Below, in pieces: positions 1-13,291 of a DNA stretch of 32,528 nt; position 1 is the first letter of the stretch, and every line of letters begins with the position of its first letter. The position numbers and the translations under genes were made by a program. Origin of the DNA: Anaerolineales bacterium (GTDB lineage Bacteria; Chloroflexota; Anaerolineae; B4-G1; DUEL01); contig DQUX01000240.1 in the NCBI GenBank assembly GCA_015662065.1, forward strand, positions 1 through 32,528. The letters are read 5' to 3'. The notes under the pieces are model-generated. The model did not search any database. It saw nothing but the letters and a program-made list of their open reading frames with translations, and had not been told where the DNA came from.

Positions 1-65
1 CATAGAAGGGGAATTTAGGGTACAATTGCAGATAGGTCAGATACAATCAATAAAGTAGGGAACCA

Positions 66-1190
66 ATGGAGGCAACGACAGGAAGCCGTCGGACCGATAC
101 CTGCGATGTGGTCGTGGTCGGCGCGGGGATCGTGGGGGCGGCAGTGGCCGTCCGGATCGCCCGGTTCGGGATGCAGGTGGCCGTGCTGGACGCCCAGAAG
201 GTGGCCGGCGGGGCCACAGGGCGAAGCGCCGGGATGGTCGTCGCCGGCCTGCCCGGCCACTACCGGCGGGCGGTGAAGGCTTTCGGACGGGAACAGGCCC
301 GCACCCTATGGGCGCTGACCATCGAGGGGCGGGAGCGGCTGGCCGAGAGCGCCAACCGCGTGGGGGTGACCCTGGAGCGGGTGGGCAGCCTGGCGGTGGC
401 GGTGACGGAGGAAGAAGTAGAAACCTTGCGGGCGTCGGCGGAACTCCTGCGAGAGGACGGCTTCGACGCCTGGTTCGGCACCACCGACCCCCTGGGACGG
501 GGCTTCCTGGCCACCCTTCGGCAGCCCGATGACGGCGTGGTGGACGTCGCGGAGCTGACCCGGGCGCTCCTCTCCTCGGCCCCCATCGCCGTCCACACCG
601 ACACCGAGGTCTACGAATTGGAGCCAACGGGAGAGGGAGTGCGGGTATGGGCCCAGGGGCGGAACGTGCGCTGCGGTAGGGTGGTGCTTACGGTGGACGG
701 ATACGCCTCCCTCCTGGACCCGGCCCTGAGCCAATGGGTGACGCCAGGGCGCGCCCTCATCGTCACCACGGAGCCGTTGGCCGGGGCAGGATTCCCCATC
801 CCGTGCTACGCTAACTACGGCCACAAATATGCCTGCCCGCTACCGGATGGGCGCTGGGCCCTGGGAGCCTGGTGGCGCCCCCGTCCAGGGGCTGCCCCCA
901 TCGAACCGGACCAATCCCTCCGGGAGGGTCTGGGCCGCTTCATCACCCGCTATTTTCCAGAGGTAAGGGGACGCATCGCCGGCCGCCGCTCCGGGGTGAT
1001 GGGCTTCACCTCCGACGGGATCCCCGTCGTGGGACGCCTCCCCCCCCCATCCCCCGTCGTCTTCGCCCTGGGGTTCGGCGGGTGGGGGCTGAGCTGGGCC
1101 TTCGTGGCCGCCGAGCGGCTGGTGGAGTGGATCCTTCAGGACACCGACCCCGGCATCCTCTCGGTGGAGCGACTTACCGGCAACCGGTAA
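66..1190 (+). CDS. FAD-dependent oxidoreductase, DAO family (glycine / D-amino-acid / sarcosine oxidase-like)
   Basis: 374-aa ORF. N-terminal Rossmann dinucleotide motif DVVVVGAGIVGAAVAVRIA. Length and C-terminal FALGFGGWGL segment are typical of DAO-type flavoproteins. ATG at 66 follows an AGGGA Shine-Dalgarno-like sequence and an AT-rich upstream region. Confidence 0.8.
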   Translation: MEATTGSRRTDTCDVVVVGAGIVGAAVAVRIARFGMQVAVLDAQKVAGGATGRSAGMVVAGLPGHYRRAVKAFGREQARTLWALTIEGRERLAESANRVGVTLERVGSLAVAVTEEEVETLRASAELLREDGFDAWFGTTDPLGRGFLATLRQPDDGVVDVAELTRALLSSAPIAVHTDTEVYELEPTGEGVRVWAQGRNVRCGRVVLTVDGYASLLDPALSQWVTPGRALIVTTEPLAGAGFPIPCYANYGHKYACPLPDGRWALGAWWRPRPGAAPIEPDQSLREGLGRFITRYFPEVRGRIAGRRSGVMGFTSDGIPVVGRLPPPSPVVFALGFGGWGLSWAFVAAERLVEWILQDTDPGILSVERLTGNR

Positions 1191-1218
1191 CAAGCAACGA
1201 GCAACCGGCAACCAGCAG
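1181..1218. repeat. Tandem heptamer array, CAACSRG family, 5-6 units
   Basis: Units read directly: caaccgg / taacaag / caacgag / caaccgg / caaccag / cag. The array starts in the last codons of the flavoprotein gene and contains its TAA stop. It fills the whole 28-nt convergent gap up to the stop of the homocysteine methyltransferase gene at 1219. Confidence 0.8.
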
Positions 1219-2088
1219 CTACCTCACCGCCCGCGCGATAGCCTCGATGTGGGCGGGGGTGGAGCCGCAGCAACCGCCGACGACCCGCGCCCCCAGGTCC
1301 ACGAACCGCCGGGCGTACTCCGCCATCACCTCCGGCGTGCCGTCGTAGAGGACCTCGTCTTCCACCATCCGGGGGAGGCCGGCGTTGGGCTTGACGATCA
1401 GAGGGACACCGGGCGCTGCCTCCCGCATCCGGCACACCGCCTCCTCGGTCATCTCCAGGCTGGCCCCGCAGTTGGCCCCGAACCCGTCCACCCTCAGCTC
1501 CGCAAGCACCTGCGCCGCCTGTTCCGGGCGGACCCCCATATTGGTCCGGCCTTTGGCGTCGAAGGAGAGGGTCACCGTGAGGGGCAGGTCGGGCGCGACC
1601 CGACGGGCCCCCTCCACCGCCGCCCGCACCTCGTCCAGGCTGGACATCGTCTCGATGTAAAGGAGGTCCACCCCGGCCTCGGCCAGACCGGCCGCCTGCT
1701 CGGCGAAGAGCGCCACCGCCTCCTCGTAGGTGCGCTTCCCCAGGGGGACCAGCAACTCCCCCAGCGGGCCGATGTCCCCGGCCACGTAGGCCCGGTCGGC
1801 GGCCGCCTCCCGGGCGATCTCCACCGCCCGTCGGTTGACCTCGGCCACCCGGTCGGCCAGGCCGGCGTGGCTCAACCGCGCTCGCGTCCCGCCGAAGGTG
1901 CAGGTCAGGATCAAATCCGCCCCGGCCTCGACGTAGGCCCGATGCACATCGGCGACCACCTCCGGCCGCTCCAGCACCCAGGCCTCGCCGGGGGTGCCCA
2001 CAGGCAGCCCGGCAGCCTGGAGCATCGTCCCCATCGCGCCGTCGGCCACCAGGACCGGTCCATCCTTTAAGCGCGTCAGGAAGTCCAT
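1219..2088 (-). CDS. Stand-alone homocysteine-binding S-methyltransferase domain protein (MetH module-I / PF02574-like)
   Basis: 289 aa from the ATG at 2088 (MDFLTRLKDGPVLVADGAMGTML...). Zinc-cysteine signature GANCG ... VGGCCGSTP. The ATG overlaps the TGA of the upstream corrinoid gene (ATGA at 2086-2090). The 29-codon N-terminal extension in the ORF track (to 2175) is Gly/Arg junk lying inside the upstream gene. Confidence 0.85.
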   Translation of the reverse strand: MDFLTRLKDGPVLVADGAMGTMLQAAGLPVGTPGEAWVLERPEVVADVHRAYVEAGADLILTCTFGGTRARLSHAGLADRVAEVNRRAVEIAREAAADRAYVAGDIGPLGELLVPLGKRTYEEAVALFAEQAAGLAEAGVDLLYIETMSSLDEVRAAVEGARRVAPDLPLTVTLSFDAKGRTNMGVRPEQAAQVLAELRVDGFGANCGASLEMTEEAVCRMREAAPGVPLIVKPNAGLPRMVEDEVLYDGTPEVMAEYARRFVDLGARVVGGCCGSTPAHIEAIARAVR

Positions 2089-2738
2089 CACCCTACTCCC
2101 ACCAACCGGCGCACCACCGTCACCGCCTCCCGAGCGTTCTCCGCGTACCCATCCGCGCCGATCCGCTCCGCCCACTCCGGCGAGGCGGGCGCTCCGCCGA
2201 TGACCACCCTCACCCGCCCCCGCATCCCGGCCTCCTCCAGCGCCTCGATCACCGCCTGCTGATTGCGCATCGTCGTCGTCAGCAGGGCAGAGAGACCCAC
2301 CACGTCGGCATCCACCTCCCGGGCCCTGGAGACGAAGGCCGCCGCCGGCACATCCACTCCCAGGTCGTGGACCACGAACCCGGCCGCCTCCAGCATCGTC
2401 GCCACCAGGCTCTTGCCGATCTCGTGGATGTCCCCCTCTACCGTGCCAATGACGACGACCCCCGGCGCGGACCGGACCTGCTCTCGGGCCACCATCTCCG
2501 GACCGAGAACCGACATCGCCGCCTTCATCGCCTCGCCCGCCATCACCAACTCAGGAATGAAATACTCGCCCTCCTCGTACAGCCTCCCCACCTCCTCCAT
2601 CGCCGGGGAGAGGACCTGCTCGACCGCCCCCAGGGGGTCTGCCCCGGCGGAGAGGGCCCGGGCGGCGAGTTCCCGCGCCCGGTCGGGGTCGCCGTCTATG
2701 ACGGCCTGGCTTAGGGGTTGGAGAAGTTCATCGTTCAT
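2088..2738 (-). CDS. Corrinoid (cobalamin)-binding protein, MttC/MtgC-like
   Basis: 216 aa from the ATG at 2738 ([17 protein letters not shown]...). B12-binding cap plus Rossmann domain with the DxHxxG lower-ligand motif (VEGDIHEIGKSLV). The longer track ORF (to 2870) only adds translation of the heptamer array. Confidence 0.85.
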   Translation of the reverse strand: MNDELLQPLSQAVIDGDPDRARELAARALSAGADPLGAVEQVLSPAMEEVGRLYEEGEYFIPELVMAGEAMKAAMSVLGPEMVAREQVRSAPGVVVIGTVEGDIHEIGKSLVATMLEAAGFVVHDLGVDVPAAAFVSRAREVDADVVGLSALLTTTMRNQQAVIEALEEAGMRGRVRVVIGGAPASPEWAERIGADGYAENAREAVTVVRRLVGVG

Positions 2739-4266
2739 CTCTAGCACCTCGTTGCTGGTTGCTGGTTGCTGGTTGCTGGTTGCTCGTTGCTCGCTGCTCG
2801 CTGCTCGTTGCTCGTTGGGGCAGTCGGTCCATTCCAGCGGCCTGGGCGGCCCGGAGAGTGATGGCGGCAAGCTCCGACACTACCTCAGGGGGGAGTTCTC
2901 TCGGCTCGTAGGCGGCGATCAGCGCTTCTGCCCGCTCATGGGCCCGCCGGACCACGTCCTTGCTCCCCTTCGCCTCCCAGTTCCGGCGGAAGTCCCGGTC
3001 CATCACCTCGCTAGGGATGAACAGTTCCTCTCGGTACCACCGCCGGGTGTGGGGGTTGGCCAGGAAGTTGCCGGCATGCCCCACCTGCCGGATCAGATCG
3101 ACCGCCAGGGGGATTCCCCGCTCGGCGACGCCGGCCACCAGCCGCTTCGCCATCCCCACGATCTCGGCGTCGATCACCAGCTTCTCCAAACTGAAACAGC
3201 TCTCAAAATCCAGCATTCCGGGTCCGCTGATCATATTGATGCCGGCCAGCGCCCCCAGGACCGCGCCGATGCCGCTCTCAAAGCCGCACTGGGCGTCGAC
3301 GATTTTTGCGTCGGACATCCCCAGGTAGGCGTGGGTGGGCAACCCCAGGTGCTTGCCTACCTGGGCGTAGGCACAGTCGATCATCATCGTCTCGACAGCC
3401 CCCATCGGCGTGGTGCCGGTGCGCATGTCGAAGGCGGCGGGGGAGCCGCCCCAGACGATGGGGGCGCCGGGGTTGGTGAACTGGTGGATGACCACGCCGC
3501 TCAGGTTCTCCGCCGCGTGCTGGACCACGGAGCCCAGCAACGTCGCCGGGCCGGTGGCCCCCGCCAGCGGCATGCTCACCAACTCCGCCGGTATCCGGTA
3601 GCGGGCACAGTCCATCAGGTTCTCGCAGGTGATCTCGGACCAGAGCAGCGGCGGGGAGGGGCAGACGTCGAAGACGGCGGTCGGTTTCTCCGCCAGCGCT
3701 TCCTCGCTGCCCGCCACCGCCACCAGCAGGTCCTTCATCACGTGCCAGGTCTCAACCCCGAAGGCCCCGGTGATCACCGGTTTCCCGGTATAGAGGAGGA
3801 CCAGGTAGAGCCGATAGAGGTCGGCGATCTCCTCGGGCACATCGGCGCAGACCAGGGCGGTGCTGACCCCGTCCATCGGGAGAAGGGAGTCGGCCAGCTT
3901 GATGTAGCGAACGAAGTCGGCGGTGACCGGAGTACGGGAGGTCACGGCCCCGTGGTCGAGGATCTCAATGGCCGCCGAGCCGGGGTCGAAGTGGACGTTG
4001 TCCCCGCCGTAATGGACCGCAGGCCGGCCCTCGAAGTCGTACAGGTAGAAGGACTTGGGAGCCGTCTCCAGCGCCCGATGCACCAAGTCGGCCGGGATGC
4101 GAGCGACCTTGGCCTCCAGGTCGACCTGGGCTCCGTGATCTCCCAGCAGGCGGAGCGCCCGCTGTGAGTGGACCCGCACGCCGGGGTCCTGCAGGAGTTC
4201 GATGGCCTCCTCAACGACCCGACTCACCGTCTCCGGGGAGAGAAACTGAAGAGTTGGTCTGATCAC
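2728..4266 (-). CDS. Trimethylamine methyltransferase (MttB, PF06253) family protein, non-pyrrolysine type
   Basis: 512-aa uninterrupted ORF with family-typical sequence throughout (...[25 protein letters not shown]...[20 protein letters not shown]...DAQCGFESG...). GTG start at 4266 lies 8 nt after GGAGGAGG. There is no in-frame TAG. The last ~30 codons translate the heptamer array ([22 protein letters not shown]...). The stop at 2728 overlaps the next gene's ATG by 11 nt. Confidence 0.85.
2748..2817. repeat. Tandem heptamer array, 10 units of CTSGYTG (minus strand CARCSAG)
   Basis: Units read directly: ctcgttg, ctggttg x4, ctcgttg, ctcgctg x2, ctcgttg x2. The plus strand has no A and the minus strand has no T, so the array is stop-free in all six frames. 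It lies in the 3' end of mttB, immediately upstream of the corrinoid-protein start. Confidence 0.9.
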
Positions 4267-4302
4267 GACATGTACCTCCTCCGGGGAGTGGATGCGGGCG
4301 CA

Positions 4303-4331
4303 AGTATATGCGGGCAGCCGGATTTCGTCAA
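4303..4331 (-). promoter_or_regulatory. Sigma70-type promoter of the mttB operon
   Basis: Minus strand reads TTGACG (4331-4326), 17 nt spacer, TATACT (4308-4303). It lies about 35 nt upstream of the GTG start at 4266. Confidence 0.6.
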
Positions 4332-4348
4332 GGATGGGCGCAACATCC

Positions 4349-4376
4349 TTGGCAACCCGTCCCCCTGTGGTATAAT
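4349..4376 (+). promoter_or_regulatory. Sigma70-type promoter of sucCD with extended -10
   Basis: TTGGCA (4349-4354), 16 nt spacer, TGG-TATAAT (4368-4376). It lies about 40 nt upstream of the sucC GTG. Confidence 0.6.
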
Positions 4377-4418
4377 CCCTCGTTGTTGACTCAACGTCCT
4401 TCAGCAGGAGGCGAACCG

Positions 4419-5579
4419 GTGAAACTACACGAATACCAATCCAAGCGCATCTTCGCGCAGTACGGCATCCCCATCCCCGAGGGAGACGTGGCGACGACCC
4501 CCTCGGAGGCCCGTGCCATCGCCGAGCGGCTGGGCGGCCCGGTGGTCGTCAAGTCCCAAGTGCTGGTCGGCGGGCGGGGGAAGGCCGGCGGCATCAAGCT
4601 GGCCCGCACCCCCGACGAGGCGGAGCAACTGGCGGCCCAGATCCTCTCCCTCCAGATCAAGGGGCTGCCCGTGCGCAAGGTCCTGGTGGACCAGGCAGCC
4701 GACATCCGCCAGGAGATCTACCTGGGCGTGGTGGTGGACCGGGCCGCCGCCCGGCCGGTGATGATGGCCTCCTCCGAGGGCGGCGTCGAGATCGAGGAGG
4801 TGGCCCGCGTCAACCCCGAGGCCATCAAGAAGGTCCACATCGACCCCTTCATCGGCCTGCGCTCCTACCAGACCCGCCGGCTGGCCAAGGGGATCGGGCT
4901 GGATCCGGCCCTGCACCGGCCGTTCGACCGGATCGCCCGGGGGCTGTACCGGGCCTTCGTCGAATCGGATGCGTCGCTGGCGGAGATCAACCCCCTGGTG
5001 GCGACCGGTGAGGGAGGGGCGCAGGGCCTTGCACCCCTACTGGCGGTGGACGGCAAGATGATCCTGGACGACAACGGCCTCTCCCGCCACCCCGACCTGG
5101 CCGAGATGCGGGACATCGACGAGGAGACCCCCACGGAGCGGGAGGCCCGCGAGGCCGGGCTCTCCTACGTGCAGTTGGACGGCGAGATCGGCTGTATGGT
5201 CAACGGGGCCGGGCTGGCGATGGCGACGATGGACATCACCAAGCACTTCGGCGGCGCGCCGGCCAACTTCCTGGATATCGGCGGCGGGGCGAAGGCAGAC
5301 CGGGTGGCGGCGGCCCTGAGGCTGATCCTGGCCGATCCCAACGTCAGGGCGGTTCTCTTCAACATCTTCGGCGGCATCACCCGCTGCGACGAGGTGGCGA
5401 AGGGGATCCTCACCGCCCTGGAGGAGGTCAAGCCCCAAGTCCCGATGGTCGCCCGTTTGGTGGGGACCAACGAGGAAGAGGGGCGGCGGCTCCTGGAGGA
5501 ATCGGGCTACGCGATGATCACCGCCACCACCCTGGCGGAAGCAGCCCAGAAGGCAGTGGCGGCGGCGCGGAACCCGTAA
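4419..5579 (+). CDS. sucC: Succinyl-CoA synthetase (ADP-forming) beta subunit
   Basis: 386 aa from the GTG at 4419 ([22 protein letters not shown]...), 7 nt after AGGAGG. ATP-grasp and ligase-CoA regions are recognisable. The track ORF start at 4308 lies inside the promoter region and adds non-homologous sequence. Confidence 0.95.
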
Positions 5580-5586
5580 CACGCAA

Positions 5587-5627
5587 CACGCAATGCGCAA
5601 TATACGCTCCGTATTACGTATTTCGTG
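5587..5627 (+). repeat. Imperfect AT-rich hairpin built from inverted CAAYRCG-type heptamers in the sucC-sucD spacer
   Basis: Left arm cacgcaatgcgcaatatacg (5587-5606), loop ctc, right arm cgtattacgtatttcgtg (5610-5627). About 15 of 18 positions pair. It is preceded by further heptamers taacacg / caacacg from 5577. Confidence 0.6.
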
Positions 5628-5646
5628 ACATAGGAGTGGGAAACCG

Positions 5647-6519
5647 ATGGCTATTCTAGTGGACAAGAACACCCGCCTCGTCGTCCAGGGCATCACCGGG
5701 CGCGAGGGGGAGTTTCATTCACGGCAGATGTTGGAGTACGGCACACAGGTGGTGGCCGGGGTGACCCCCGGCAAGGGCGGCCAGACCGCCTGCGACGGCC
5801 GGGTGCCGGTGTTCGACACGGTGCGGGAGGCGGTGGAAGCGACCGGGGCCAACAGCTCCGTAGTCTATGTACCGGCCCGCTTCGCACCAGACGCCATCCT
5901 GGAGGCGGCCGACGCCGGGGTGGACCTCATCGTCTGCATCACCGAGGGGATCCCGGTTATGGACATGATCCGGGTGAAGGCGTATCTCGATCAGAAGGGA
6001 GCCCGGCTGGTCGGCCCCAACTGCCCCGGCCTTCTGACCCCCGGTGAGGCGAAGGTAGGCATCATGCCGGGTCATATCGCCACGCCGGGCCCGGTAGGGG
6101 TCGTCTCCCGCTCCGGCACGCTGACCTACGAGGTGGTCTACGCGCTGACGGCGCGGGGGATGGGGCAGACGACCTGCGTGGGCATCGGCGGCGATCCCAT
6201 CATCGGCACCCGCTTCGTGGATGTCCTGGAGATGTTCGAGGCGGACCCGAAGACGGAGCGGGTGGTGATGATCGGCGAGATCGGCGGCAATGATGAGGAA
6301 ATCGCGGCGCGGTTCATCGCCGAGCGGATGACCAAGCCGGTGGTGGCCTTCATCGCCGGGCAGACCGCGCCGCCGGGCAAGCGGATGGGCCACGCGGGGG
6401 CGATCATCGAGGGAGGCGAGGGCACCGCCGCGGGAAAGATCGCCGCGCTGGAAGCGGTGGGCGTGCAGGTGGCCGAGCACCCCGAACAGGTCGCGGAGCT
6501 GGTGGCGACCGCCGGCTAG
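5647..6519 (+). CDS. sucD: Succinyl-CoA synthetase alpha subunit
   Basis: 290 aa: [21 protein letters not shown]..., [16 protein letters not shown], and the phosphohistidine loop GHAGAII. AGGAG lies upstream of the ATG. Confidence 0.95.
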
Positions 6520-6541
6520 CCCTCGCCCCATCCCATTGAGT

Positions 6542-6565
6542 AGGGGCGCAGCATGCTGCGCCCCT
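6542..6565. terminator. Perfect 24-nt GC-rich palindrome between convergent genes (bidirectional terminator candidate)
   Basis: aggggcgcagca|tgctgcgcccct lies 23 nt after the sucD stop and abuts the stop codon of the convergent GNAT gene. No clear U-tract on either side. Confidence 0.6.
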
Positions 6566-7682
6566 ACAGCCTCCGCTCGTAGATTCGGTGCGCCTTGTAG
6601 AAATCCGCCCCCAGCGCCTCCAATTCCTGCATCATCTTCGTGTTCTGCTCGTTGATCTGCACCAGGTCGGCGTGGAGAAAACCCCGCTCTTTAAACGTCT
6701 TGAACATCTCATAGTAGAGAACAGCGTTCGCGCCCAGCCCCCGGTACTGGGGGAGGATCCCCGCCCCGTTGAAGTTGATCCAGCGGGTGCGGCGAAACTC
6801 CCACAGAAGCAGCGCCCAACCGAAGGGATAGAGCCGCCCCTTACAGCGCCGCAGCGCCGCCGACACATCGGGGAAGCCCAGCAGGAAGCCGACGATCTGC
6901 TCCCCCTTGGCGACGACCTTGACCAGGTCCGGCCGGGTCAGCGAAATGAGGCGGTCGGCGACCTTTACCGCATCCTCGCCGGTGATGGGCACGAAGTCCC
7001 GGTTCTCCACAAAGGCAGCGTTGTATGCTTCAATCACGCGGGGGGCGATCGCCCGTAACTCGTCCTTGGTGCGGAAGCGAAGCACCTTAAACCCCCGTCG
7101 CTCTTTCACCTTCTCTGCAATGCGGCGGAACCGCTCCGGGAGCTGAATGTCGCCGGGCAGATAACAGGATAAGTAGTCGGTCTGTTTCCGGAACCCCGCG
7201 TCCCGGATAAAACCGTCGTAGTAGGCGTAGTTGTAGGCGACCCCCATCGCCGGGCGATGCTCAAAGCCCTCAACCAACGCCCCCAGCGCATCCCCGGCGG
7301 CGAACCCCTCGGGGCCGCTCATCTCCCCCAATCCCCGGCTCCGGGCCCAATCGAAAGCGGCGGCGAATAGAGCGCGGGCGACCTCGATATCCTCTACCGC
7401 CTCGAAAAGGTAGAAAAACGCCCCCCGCCTGCCCCGGTAAGCGTTCCGCTTGCGCGGCTCCAGGACGGCGATCCGTCCGACCACCTTGCCCCCCTGGAGG
7501 GCCAGGAAGAAATCGGCATCGGAATGGCTGTAGAAGAAGTGGCGCTCCCGGTCCAACTGCTTCCGCGCGCTGGAGACCAGCGGTGGGACCCACTGGGGGC
7601 AATCCCGGTACAGCCGGAAGGGGAACTGGACAAACCGCTCCACATCGCGGGGGTCGCTCGTATCTACCTTATGGATCTCCAT
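6564..7682 (-). CDS. GNAT-superfamily N-acyltransferase-like protein (two-domain, ~370 aa type)
   Basis: 372 aa. C-terminal GNAT motif-A-like GILPQYRGLGANAVLYYEM. The N-terminal FPFRLYRDCPQWVPPL segment is typical of a conserved uncharacterised GNAT family. ATG is preceded by GGGAGGAAG. Confidence 0.6.
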   Translation of the reverse strand: MEIHKVDTSDPRDVERFVQFPFRLYRDCPQWVPPLVSSARKQLDRERHFFYSHSDADFFLALQGGKVVGRIAVLEPRKRNAYRGRRGAFFYLFEAVEDIEVARALFAAAFDWARSRGLGEMSGPEGFAAGDALGALVEGFEHRPAMGVAYNYAYYDGFIRDAGFRKQTDYLSCYLPGDIQLPERFRRIAEKVKERRGFKVLRFRTKDELRAIAPRVIEAYNAAFVENRDFVPITGEDAVKVADRLISLTRPDLVKVVAKGEQIVGFLLGFPDVSAALRRCKGRLYPFGWALLLWEFRRTRWINFNGAGILPQYRGLGANAVLYYEMFKTFKERGFLHADLVQINEQNTKMMQELEALGADFYKAHRIYERRL

Positions 7683-7827
7683 CGTTTATCTTCCTCCCTT
7701 ACAGGCGCGGCGCGCCTGGGAGCCGTTAAAGGGGCCAAATCGTGCCGGGAATCCGGTCCGATGGGTATGAGAACGGCCGGTTGGGGAAGTGCATCGCACC
7801 CTCCCACCGCCCCGTGTGGCTGTAGTA

Positions 7828-8673
7828 CTAAGATGGGGCGGCGAAGTAGCCGGCCGCCAGCACCCCCGGCCCGGCATGGACGACGATGGCGGGGGGCAGG
7901 AGATAGATAGGGACCTCGGACAGGCCCAGCGCGTCGGCGAAGTCGGCGGCCAGGGCCTGCGCCTCCGCCTCGGCGTCGGCGTGCATCACGCAGAGGAGGG
8001 CGTCGGGGCTGCGGGGGCACCCCTCCAGCACCAATTCCCGCAGCCGGGCCAGCGCCCGTCGCTTGGTCCGTTGCTGCTCCAACGGCTCCACCCGTCCGTC
8101 CTCCAGCGTGAGGATGGGCTTGACCTGCAGGAGCCCTCCCAGCAGGGCCTGCGCCCCGCCGATCCGCCCCCCCTTGTGCAGATACTCCAACGTGTCCACG
8201 ACGAAGAAGACCCGTTGGCGGGCCATCAGATCCCGCACCCTCTCCACGATCGTATCCGCGTCCATCCCCTCCCGGGCCCACCGGTCGGCCTGGAGAACCA
8301 TAGTCGCCAGCGGCCCGGCGATGGTGCGGGTGTCCACCACGCGGATGTTGGCGTCGGGGAAGTCCTGCGCAGCGACGGTGGCCGAACGGACAGTGCCGCT
8401 GAGCTCGGTAGAAGGGTGCAAGCAGATGATCGTATCCCCCTCCGCCACCAGACGTTCGAAGACAGGGGTGAACAGGGCCGGGGGCGGCGCTGCGGTCTTA
8501 GGGAGAACCGGTGAGGCGCGCAGCTTCTCCAGGAAGGCGGCGGTGTCCAGTTCCGTGTCGTCCCGGTACGACTCCTCGCCAAAGATGATGATCTGAGGCA
8601 GAACCGGGATGTCGAGTTCCACGGCCTGGTGCAGGGGAAGACCGGAGGTCGTGTCGGTGACAATCCTGATCAT
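7828..8673 (-). CDS. DegV family fatty-acid-binding protein
   Basis: 281 aa: MIRIVTDTTSGLP...DIPVLPQIIIFGEESYRDD...PKTAAPPPALF, with DegV-typical length and motifs. Confidence 0.85.
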   Translation of the reverse strand: MIRIVTDTTSGLPLHQAVELDIPVLPQIIIFGEESYRDDTELDTAAFLEKLRASPVLPKTAAPPPALFTPVFERLVAEGDTIICLHPSTELSGTVRSATVAAQDFPDANIRVVDTRTIAGPLATMVLQADRWAREGMDADTIVERVRDLMARQRVFFVVDTLEYLHKGGRIGGAQALLGGLLQVKPILTLEDGRVEPLEQQRTKRRALARLRELVLEGCPRSPDALLCVMHADAEAEAQALAADFADALGLSEVPIYLLPPAIVVHAGPGVLAAGYFAAPS

Positions 8674-11247: not shown

Positions 11248-11276
11248 TTGACATCTCTCCCACCCAATGCTATACT
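11248..11276 (+). promoter_or_regulatory. Sigma70-type promoter of the metallophosphoesterase gene
   Basis: TTGACA (11248-11253), 17 nt spacer, TGC-TATACT (11268-11276). The ATG at 11267 used by the ORF track lies inside this promoter. Confidence 0.7.
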
Positions 11277-11326
11277 CGCGAGAGCGAGACGACATCCCGC
11301 CTACGCTCCCCAGGACGGAGGTGACG

Positions 11327-13291
11327 ATGGACAAGCCCACTCCCCAGGTTGATTACCTTTTCATCAGCGATCTGCATGTCTCCCTTGGATACGACCCCGA
11401 ACGGCGCGCCTACCACGCCCGCGAGGATTTCTTCTTCGACGACGCTTTCTTCCGCTGGCTCCAATGGGCCAATGGGACCTGCCCCCCAGACCGGCGGTGG
11501 GAACTGGTCTTCGTCGGCGACGGCTTCGACTTCCTCCCCGTCGACCTAGAGATGGTCCACCGGTATTTCGAGGCGCGGGACCGCCGCTGGAAGGAGCTGG
11601 ACCCGGCCGATCGGGGCCAGGCAGTGGCCTACTGGCGGCGGCAGTTCGGCGGCGATGAGCATCTCCCCCCTCACGAACGGGTCCCCGACTGGATACGCTG
11701 GCTCTTCTTCGAGGACGACGCGCGGGAGGGACGGGTCCGGCTGACCCCTGCCCCACGCAGAGAGCTGCTGACGATGGCCCCGGAGGCCATCGCTCCCGAT
11801 TGGGCGGTCCACCTCTACGGCGGCCTCGACCCCTCCATCGAGGAAGCAGCTCGGGAGATCGCCCCCGCTTTCGGGCTGGGGCGGCCGCTGAGGGAACCGG
11901 AGGTGGCCTTCCAGGTCGTGGAAGGCGAGGCCCCCCCCAGGCCAGAGCGGGATCGATTGCAGGAGGAAACCTTCGAGCAACGGTACGGCTTCCTGCCCAC
12001 CCAGGCTAAATCCATGGCCCGCCTATACTTCATCTATCGGGGCCATCCCGTCTTCTTCCGCGCCTTGGCTTGGTTTGTGGGTCAGGGCCACCGGGTGACC
12101 TTCCTGCGCGGCAACCACGACCTGGAGCTCTTCTGGCCGGGGGTGCAGGCACTGCTTCGGCGATTCGTGGCCCGGGAGCACCCGGCCGCCTTCGACGACC
12201 GGCCCTCCCCCCCTCCCCTGCCCGACCTGGATGAGCGGATCACCTTCCGGCCCGGCTGGTTCTACTACCGGCCTGGCCTGTTCTACGCCGAGCACGGCAA
12301 CCAATATGAGCCGATCAACTCCTGCCCCAACTTCCTCCGTCCCCTCCTGCCCACCGACCCCCGGCTCCTCAACCCGCCGGTGGGCAACGTGGGGGTGACC
12401 ACCGTCGTCGCCAATATGGAAGACGAATACCCGGAATGGGAGAACCGGGGCAAGCACGCCGTCGTTATCAAGGAACTGGTCCGCCGCTACCCCCACCAGG
12501 CGTTCCTCATCGTCACCCGCCACGTCCGCGACTTCCTGTGGATGGCCCAGCGGCTCTGGCAGGCCACCCAGGGAGAGAAGCAAGAACCGACCGAGGAGGA
12601 CTTCCGCCAGTACGCATCGTCGGTCGGCCTCCCCCCGGAGACGGTGAGGGCCATCTATTACGAATGGGATCCCCCGCTCCTGGTGCGACACCCCCTGGCC
12701 TGGTTCCTCTTCAGCCCCGGCGGCCACGTCCTCAAAGCGCTGCTGGTCCTGCTCGTAGCCGCCCTCGCGGTGGGCGGGGGCCTGCTCTGGTACCTGGTGA
12801 TCGCCCCCTTCTTAGCCAGCCTGATCCCGCCCAACTTCCTCTCCACCACCATCGGCCCGGCGCTGCAACTTCTGGGGAAGATCCTCCTGTGGCTCCTGCC
12901 CCCCCTGGCCCTGGAAGCGGTGCGCCGCTCCCTCGCCCGGTGGTATCCCCATCCCCTGATGTACTGGGCCGCCCGACGGGTCCACAGACACCTACGGGAG
13001 ACGGATCGCCATCTGCGCTTCTACATCCTCGGCCACGACCATAAGACCGACGTGCGGATCGTGGAGCGCAAGCCGGACCACAAGCACGTCTACTACCTGA
13101 ACACCGGCTGTTGGTTCCCCGAGTTCGTCGAGGGAACCCGGCGGCTGCAGACCTTGGGTCAGGACGTACAGTTCACCTTCGTGCGACTGGTTCAGCGACA
13201 GGAGGGTGTAGAGGCCGATCTACTGCGCTGGAACGACGACGCGGGCCGGGCCGAGCAGCAGATCGTGCCGCCCGCCCGACCGGAAGAGTAG
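11327..13291 (+). CDS. Membrane-anchored calcineurin-like metallophosphoesterase with large insertions
   Basis: 654 aa from the ATG at 11327, 6 nt after GGAGGTG. MPE motifs occur in order: FISDLHV (DxH), FVGDGFDF (GDxxD), RGNHDLE (GNHD/E), AEHGNQY (H), ILGHDHK (GHxH). Two to three hydrophobic helices (ALLVLLVAALAVGGGLLWYLVIAPFLA, LLGKILLWLLPPLAL) lie between the last two motifs. Confidence 0.75.
   Translation: MDKPTPQVDYLFISDLHVSLGYDPERRAYHAREDFFFDDAFFRWLQWANGTCPPDRRWELVFVGDGFDFLPVDLEMVHRYFEARDRRWKELDPADRGQAVAYWRRQFGGDEHLPPHERVPDWIRWLFFEDDAREGRVRLTPAPRRELLTMAPEAIAPDWAVHLYGGLDPSIEEAAREIAPAFGLGRPLREPEVAFQVVEGEAPPRPERDRLQEETFEQRYGFLPTQAKSMARLYFIYRGHPVFFRALAWFVGQGHRVTFLRGNHDLELFWPGVQALLRRFVAREHPAAFDDRPSPPPLPDLDERITFRPGWFYYRPGLFYAEHGNQYEPINSCPNFLRPLLPTDPRLLNPPVGNVGVTTVVANMEDEYPEWENRGKHAVVIKELVRRYPHQAFLIVTRHVRDFLWMAQRLWQATQGEKQEPTEEDFRQYASSVGLPPETVRAIYYEWDPPLLVRHPLAWFLFSPGGHVLKALLVLLVAALAVGGGLLWYLVIAPFLASLIPPNFLSTTIGPALQLLGKILLWLLPPLALEAVRRSLARWYPHPLMYWAARRVHRHLRETDRHLRFYILGHDHKTDVRIVERKPDHKHVYYLNTGCWFPEFVEGTRRLQTLGQDVQFTFVRLVQRQEGVEADLLRWNDDAGRAEQQIVPPARPEE

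Follow-up and report, generated by a model that had tools for sequence, protein, structure and literature searches.

Corrinoid-dependent synthesis of methionine has been proposed for a gene cluster of Ca. Electryoneota and 'diverse bacteria' that comprises a non-pyrrolysine homologue of MtgB/MttB, a homocysteine S-methyltransferase, a corrinoid protein and an activation protein, with the methyl donor left unspecified (Williams et al. 2022, Environ Microbiol, PMC9324843). The Electryoneota MttB homologue belongs to an uncharacterised clade, apart from MtgB and MttB and nearer to MttB (PMC9324843). Here we analyse a 32.5-kb stretch of DNA from an Anaerolineae (Chloroflexota) bacterium (contig DQUX01000240.1; the whole stretch is referred to as the window; G+C 66-70%), which contains three genes encoding an MttB homologue, a corrinoid protein and a stand-alone homocysteine methyltransferase (HMT). 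On balance, these three genes probably form an operon for a three-component corrinoid-dependent methyl-transfer chain ending in methionine. The locus is a compact Anaerolineae example of a cluster type that is already proposed and biochemically uncharacterised; the novelty implied by an earlier inspection of the DNA (the sequence-only reading) is lost, since the same cluster and the same hypothesis were published in 2022 (PMC9324843) and the MtgBCDE model in 2025 (PMC12478193).

The window shares with the Williams cluster the three core genes and the hypothesis on their function, and the placement of the MttB homologue agrees with the scores and the neighbour-joining (NJ) tree obtained here. 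The differences, with the Electryoneota proteins compared by description, are that the window has no PF02965 gene and so is not a four-gene cluster, that its order is MttB-Cor-HMT (Cor, corrinoid gene), and that it lies in Anaerolineae, where the MttB-Cor pair stands upstream of an HMT gene already syntenic with genes for a DAO-family flavoprotein and ClpB.

In Ruegeria, genetic evidence indicates that a single corrinoid protein works with a glycine-betaine demethylase of the MttB family as well as with a PF02574 subunit (Mausz et al. 2025, PNAS, PMC12478193). This system, MtgBCDE, is described for Ruegeria pomeroyi, Sinorhizobium meliloti and marine bacteria, and the Sinorhizobium 'Bhmt' was reinterpreted as its MtgE (PMC12478193). 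As in the window, a separate MttB-family enzyme (MtgB), a corrinoid protein (MtgC) and a PF02574 subunit (MtgE) are arranged around one shared carrier; moreover, the best NCBIfam model for the window HMT is the Sinorhizobium-type 'Bhmt', equated with MtgE. However, MtgBCDE has a pterin-binding MtgD, RamA and DUF1638, it is shown for glycine betaine, and its mtgE usually lies apart from mtgBCD in the marine taxa; conversely, the window carries HMT inside the operon, no MtgD or activase in its 32.5 kb or in 7.5 kb beyond, an MttC-like corrinoid protein, and no MtgB glycine-betaine site.

Three other systems bear a more partial resemblance. The three-part split MetH of Phaeobacter inhibens, which comes with a RamA-like activase (Price et al. 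2018, PMC5764234), has stand-alone PF02574 and PF02607/PF02310 proteins, the latter annotated as methylamine corrinoid protein (PMC5764234); its donor module, however, is a pterin-binding protein using methyl-tetrahydrofolate, while that of the window is an MttB homologue. The MtgB, MtcB, MtpB, MtyB and MthB enzymes of Desulfitobacterium and Eubacterium, with MtgC/MtqC and MtgA/MtqA, likewise pair a non-pyrrolysine MttB-superfamily enzyme (MT1) with a cognate corrinoid protein, but they use tetrahydrofolate as acceptor through an MtrH-type enzyme and bind acidic quaternary amines through Arg312 (PMC13080624), a position that is mainly His or Gln in the window clade. Finally, the pyrrolysine MttB and MttC of methanogens (7xcl, 7xcn) are the best structural-database matches of the window proteins and the sister group of its MttB clade in the NJ tree; their acceptor is coenzyme M, reached via MtbA, whereas the window has no UAG and carries Met317 instead, and its protein stays below the TIGR02369 cut-off.

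The three genes and their products

The three genes are tightly packed and co-oriented on the minus strand; their main features are the following.

4303..4331, minus strand: sigma-70-like promoter, TTGACG-17-TATACT, 10/12 consensus matches
4275..4282, minus strand: ribosome-binding site GGAGGAGG, 8 nt 5' of the GTG start of the MttB homologue
2728..4266, minus strand: MttB-superfamily methyltransferase, non-pyrrolysine, 512 amino acids, GTG start (PF06253, E 6.6e-85)
3316..3318, minus strand: ATG codon of Met317, aligned with Pyl334 of MttB
2088..2738, minus strand: corrinoid (B12-binding) protein, 216 amino acids, MttC/MtgC-like (PF02607 and PF02310)
2415..2432, minus strand: DIHEIG, the DxHxxG base-off/His-on cobalamin-binding motif, residues 103-108, read in translation
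1219..2088, minus strand: stand-alone homocysteine S-methyltransferase, MetH module-1/'MtgE' type, 289 amino acids (PF02574, E 1.5e-76)
1465..1479, minus strand: GANCG with Cys207, first putative zinc ligand, aligned with GINCS of Thermotoga maritima MetH
1264..1278, minus strand: GGCCG with Cys273/Cys274, second and third putative zinc ligands, aligned with GGCCG of Thermotoga maritima MetH

The sequence-only reading had described the promoter, the three products and their motifs in these terms, and all were recovered at the positions it gave. The triad is also present in other assemblies of the same organism (L168-L171), where independent gene calls give products of 512, 216, 289 and 374 amino acids. 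As to the gene junctions, the overlap of 11 nt between the genes for the MttB homologue and the corrinoid protein is confirmed, and it exists only because an array of heptamers, described below, is read through as a C-terminal extension of the MttB homologue; the ATGA overlap claimed for the second junction was a misreading of TGATG, in which the stop codon of the corrinoid gene and the start codon of HMT share 1 nt at position 2088.

The first product matches PF06253 over residues 4-472 with 285.4 bits, against a cut-off of 25. Its reading frame has no internal stop and no in-frame UAG, and the equivalog model of pyrrolysine MttB, TIGR02369, gives 398 bits, below its cut-off of 525; it is a full-length, non-pyrrolysine member of the family, as had been claimed. 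Among the 85 members of its clade the pyrrolysine column is occupied by Met (42 sequences), Leu (40) or Ala (3). In the comparison with PDB sequences, pyrrolysine MttB (7xcl) scores 231 bits and the glycine-betaine enzyme MtgB 208 bits.

The corrinoid protein passes TIGR02370 (226.7 bits, cut-off 215.3) and is closer to MttC (7xcn_M, 194 bits) than to the B12 domain of MetH (about 100 bits). The GDIHEIG stretch occupies its residues 102-108, and SALL (residue 150) and IGGA (residue 180) follow further downstream.

The HMT covers 283 of the 283 positions of PF02574 with 258.4 bits, and its three cysteines, Cys207, Cys273 and Cys274, align with those of GINCS and GGCCG in T. maritima MetH, which we take to be the zinc ligands of that structure. 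The homocysteine module of the same MetH scores 180 bits, vs 77 for BHMT and 79 for MmuM. The best NCBIfam match is NF005718, the Sinorhizobium-type betaine--homocysteine S-methyltransferase, with 306.6 bits, below its cut-off of 338; by this score the protein is a relative of the NF005718/MtgE group and not a scored member of it. The closest database relatives of the HMT (75-89% identity) all come from metagenome-assembled genomes (MAGs) of Anaerolineae/Chloroflexota.

Thus the operon holds a hybrid set, with an MT1 and a corrinoid protein of methylamine type and a second methyltransferase (MT2) of MetH type. The sequence-only reading, which had seen in it a MetH whose methyl-tetrahydrofolate module is exchanged for an MttB-type enzyme, is sustained by these scores and by the repeated adjacency of MttB and HMT genes in other genomes. 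We infer the direction of methyl flow and the acceptor as follows: the MttB homologue (MT1) would demethylate a small methylated compound and load the methyl group onto the MttC-like corrinoid protein in its Co(I) state; the zinc-dependent, MetH-type HMT (MT2) would then move this group from methyl-Co(III) to zinc-activated homocysteine, yielding methionine. The corrinoid protein and HMT would be translationally coupled, and the occasional reductive reactivation of the corrinoid would depend on a gene located beyond the window.

Should the chain operate in this way, some bacteria could draw the methyl group of methionine from an environmental donor with no need for folate, and their demand for B12 and turnover of methylated amines would be tied directly to the synthesis of an amino acid. 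The clade of the MttB homologue is large, spans several phyla and lacks the residues by which all characterised relatives are defined. The window holds the smallest version of the system, three genes behind one promoter with no accessory genes, and would be a convenient construct for reconstitution.

The substrate pocket and the methyl donor

In an NJ tree of 88 sequences, built with no bootstrap, all 85 members of the window clade form the sister group to pyrrolysine MttB, and MtgB falls outside it together with the MttB of a Chloroflexia MAG (L009). The glycine-betaine site of MtgB consists of Y97, R312, H348 and F356 (Picking et al. 2026, PMC13080624); R312 is kept in every characterised quaternary-amine enzyme, each of which acts on an acidic substrate, and forms a salt bridge to the acidic group (PMC13080624). 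The corresponding residues of the window protein are S97, H312, S347 and E355, a pairwise HMMER alignment concurs, and the replacements extend to the clade (85 sequences), as follows.

MtgB Y97 column: Ser in 85
MtgB R312 column: His in 54, Gln in 30, Asn in 1
MtgB H348 column: Ser in 85
MtgB F356 column: Glu in 82, Leu in 3

As to the Arg312 shared with MtcB, MtpB, MtyB and MthB, none of the 85 members has Arg at this column, the conservation of R312 being taken from PMC13080624 and not from a direct alignment.

Because the four MtgB contacts are replaced throughout the clade, the MttB homologue is, on its predicted pocket, not an MtgB, and the quaternary-amine or betaine-type donor suggested by the sequence-only reading is unsupported. 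Glycine betaine and other acidic quaternary amines are improbable donors, and with the MtgB contacts absent, Arg312 included, such a compound was rejected as the default. The near-invariant Glu355, together with no basic residue, would fit a substrate free of carboxylate, and the SBP_bac_3 genes that flank MttB in sister loci would point to an imported polar solute. A further step, that the clade dispenses with pyrrolysine and takes methyl groups from a methylamine that is not acidic (trimethylamine, for example, or a different cationic N-methyl compound), and that with the corrinoid protein and HMT it makes up a folate-independent, B12-dependent methionine synthase, is doubtful.

Some of the closest MttB genes have transport genes around them. 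Four loci (L089, L090, L093, L094; about 5300-8600) show the arrangement SBP_bac_3-Cor-MttB-SBP_bac_3, with MttB 80-83% identical and no HMT, and in a fifth (L091, 3397-5967) an ECF transporter module (CbiQ and two ATPases) precedes MttB, also with no HMT; these solute-binding and ECF neighbours may help to identify the substrate.

A trace of similarity to true mttB is found at the nucleotide level.

3219-3318, minus strand: match to the Rfam model PYLIS_3, starting exactly at the Met317 codon, 26.9 bits against a gathering score of 38, E 0.014

This sub-threshold match is most simply read as residual coding homology with true mttB.

Distribution of the triad and competing explanations

Gene neighbourhoods were compared in two scans, one anchored on HMT, with one genome per species, and one anchored on MttB, covering 80 metagenome loci with MttB at least 48% identical; Act denotes the MetH activation-domain protein (PF02965). 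The HMT-anchored scan found the triad in MAGs labelled Ignavibacteria, Chlorobiaceae and Planctomycetota and in one unclassified (L054, L060, L071, L072). In L054, L060 and L072 the PF02965 gene sits between MttB and the corrinoid gene, and the four-gene form that includes it recurs at about 15 metagenome loci. In the MttB-anchored scan an HMT gene lies within 6 kb of MttB at 23 of the 80 loci, in three gene orders: MttB-Cor-HMT(-DAO), MttB-Act-Cor-HMT and Cor-HMT-Act-MttB. Judged from these neighbourhoods, the association of MttB with HMT is far above chance, arose or persisted in several gene orders, and is facultative. In a phylogeny of the corrinoid proteins, the grouping follows gene order (MttB-Cor vs Cor-MttB) and not strictly the presence of HMT.

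Conservation among close relatives, which the sequence-only reading had proposed as a check, is partial. The bare triad is kept in L081 (HMT 82% identical), again with a convergent DAO gene, and in L084 (HMT 86% identical), in different surroundings. The L086 locus shares the synteny HMT-DAO-ClpB-ClpB with the window and L081, minus the two upstream genes; because it keeps this block without the upstream pair, HMT, with DAO, appears to be resident at this site and MttB-Cor to be an accessory cassette added ahead of it. The operon would then owe its origin to a mobile MttB-corrinoid cassette that arrived immediately upstream of an established HMT gene. An Anaerolineae MAG (L022) with a Cor-HMT pair and RamA, and without MttB, fits the idea of a Cor-HMT core for methionine synthesis with exchangeable donor modules.

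Several observations weigh against a dedicated methionine-forming chain. Five relatives with HMT 75-80% identical (L001, L002, L003, L085, L086) have no MttB or corrinoid gene nearby. Where 3 kb or more of sequence is available on each side of MttB (34 loci), just 9 loci include HMT, the others having a corrinoid gene but no HMT (11) or neither (14). The closest MttB genes, 81-83% identical, lie in SBP_bac_3-Cor-MttB-SBP_bac_3 or ECF-module loci without HMT, and MttB-Cor cassettes of the same type also occur away from HMT (L103, L106, L109). No activase is visible, as a Pfam scan of the proteins of the 32.5-kb window found no RamA, PF02965 or PF00809 gene. Finally, a literature search found no biochemical characterisation of the MttB clade or the cluster of the window.

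The explanation that we rank as the main rival, and consider rather unlikely, regards the corrinoid protein as a shared carrier from which methyl groups pass mainly to tetrahydrofolate, in a catabolic process, via an unlinked pterin-binding methyltransferase; HMT would use the same carrier for housekeeping methionine, normally made from methyl-tetrahydrofolate, and the operon would not be folate-independent. Such a division of labour has a precedent, in that mtgC and mtgD are both needed for both functions (Mausz et al., PMC12478193). Close relatives have HMT orthologues without partner genes beside them, which must function with proteins encoded at other loci, and in one triad-bearing MAG (L071) an MTHFR gene lies 7 kb away. 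The L009 locus even unites MttB-RamA-Cor-HMT-DUF1638 with MTHFR and Pterin_bind genes; its MttB, however, is just 30% identical and outside the window clade. As the sequence-only reading had noted for RamA and pterin-binding methyltransferases, the window itself lacks the genes that this explanation calls for: no PF00809, MTHFR, RamA or DUF1638 gene is found in its 32.5 kb, and none of these, nor a PF02965 gene, in the 7.5 kb adjoining it (L168). In addition, among 76 neighbours of the MttB relatives without HMT there is no pterin-binding methyltransferase and no RamA; what these neighbours include are SBP_bac_3, ABC transporter genes and one ECF module.

It is improbable that the adjacency is a coincidence, with an independent housekeeping HMT and a mobile MttB-corrinoid cassette that landed upstream of it and supplies methyl groups to a different acceptor by way of an enzyme from another locus. 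The synteny of HMT-DAO-ClpB-ClpB without MttB-Cor (L086, L002) would be expected in this case, as would the many clade members that are lone MttB genes and the MttB-Cor cassettes of L106 and L109, which belong to the same corrinoid-protein lineage and adjoin shikimate dehydrogenase and not HMT. Nevertheless, HMT near MttB at 23 of 80 loci in three independent orders would be far above expectation for a gene present at one to two copies per genome, the junctions overlap by 1 nt or are comparably tight, and PF02965 genes are embedded between MttB and Cor-HMT.

It is very improbable that HMT is a cobalamin-independent thiol methyltransferase of BHMT/MmuM type, using betaine, S-methylmethionine or S-adenosylmethionine (SAM) directly, with DAO oxidising the amine product: the name of its best NCBIfam model and the conserved HMT-DAO adjacency speak for it, but the NF005718 score lies below the cut-off, the Sinorhizobium-type 'Bhmt' behind that model was itself reinterpreted as an MtgE module (Mausz et al., PMC12478193), the MetH module outscores both BHMT and MmuM, and the DAO gene is convergent, hence not co-transcribed, with a weak match of 48 bits to glycine/sarcosine oxidase.

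A few loci of the scans show arrangements of their own. In L100 (1790-3715) HMT directly follows an MttB homologue, across a gap of 90 nt that holds no corrinoid gene. In L098, MttB and the corrinoid gene are separated by an insert of 2.2 kb, which holds unrelated genes on the opposite strand and was set aside. In L084 (1308-3578) the triad is preceded by genes for a CdhD-like 4Fe-4S protein (359 amino acids) and a 363-residue protein without Pfam match; both the CdhD/Fer4 and the 363-residue protein were rejected as activases, since they do not recur near the 80 MttB relatives. In 11 Anaerolineales MAGs (L033, L035, L037, L042, L044, L046, L047, L050, L058, L059, L079) tblastn matches to HMT and the corrinoid protein, spaced like the domains of a multidomain MetH, are followed 1-5 kb downstream by a more distant stand-alone HMT (41-46% identical), which suggests two homocysteine methyltransferase modules at one locus.

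Control signals, repeats and neighbouring genes

Further features of the operon and its surroundings are the following.

4349-4376, plus strand: divergent promoter-like site TTGGCA-16-TATAAT, towards sucC, 11/12 matches
2748..2817, no strand assigned: tandem array of heptamers, 10 copies, CAACGAG/CAACCAG on the minus strand, Tandem Repeats Finder (TRF) score 98
1176..1217, no strand assigned: second heptamer array, 6 copies, opposite orientation, tandem-repeat scan
66..1190, plus strand: DAO-family flavoprotein, 374 amino acids, converging on the operon (PF01266)

The operon promoter and the divergent site are the two promoter-like sites found in the 3.5 kb scanned, where shuffled sequences give 0.2. 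Control by a cobalamin or SAM riboswitch was rejected, as an Rfam scan of positions 1-6000 with E up to 1 returned neither and had the PYLIS_3 coding-homology match as its sole result.

The array at 2748-2817 adds about 22 residues to the C-terminus of the MttB homologue, relatives without it being 485-490 amino acids long. With positions 2753-2790 of this array, the one at 1176-1217 forms an inverted pair of 38 nt, 84% complementary, whose arms are 1535 nt apart and enclose the corrinoid and HMT genes; the array at 1176-1217 also overlaps a weak terminator-like hairpin (1200-1223, minus strand). The two arrays could pair over a long range on the operon transcript. Across about 2 Mb of compared loci there is one further array of this kind, at 919-939 of L087, the closest relative, between HMT and DAO.

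The DAO flavoprotein converges on the operon, as had been noted, and has as best NCBIfam match ThiO with 74.6 bits, far below the cut-off of 250.8, and as best PDB match glycine oxidase (48 bits). Its gene adjoins HMT in L086 and L002, both without MttB and corrinoid genes, and also in L087, whose contig begins 32 nt before HMT, so that the upstream side is not visible. With HMT and DAO as the resident genes and MttB-Cor as the accessory cassette, DAO travels with HMT and not with MttB; for this reason the proposal that it oxidises the demethylated product was rejected, and the flavoprotein is probably outside the methyl-transfer system.

Two open reading frames elsewhere in the window stand out. 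The one at 11267-13291 (plus strand) codes for 674 amino acids with coding-like codon bias and has no Pfam match even at E 0.01. The other, from 16321 to about 19698 (minus strand), lies directly downstream of the PBP2/MreBCD cell-shape genes and codes for about 1125 amino acids, its start being uncertain; its sole match is a TMEM260-like O-mannosyltransferase, and its G+C by codon position is atypical (second 0.55, third 0.77).

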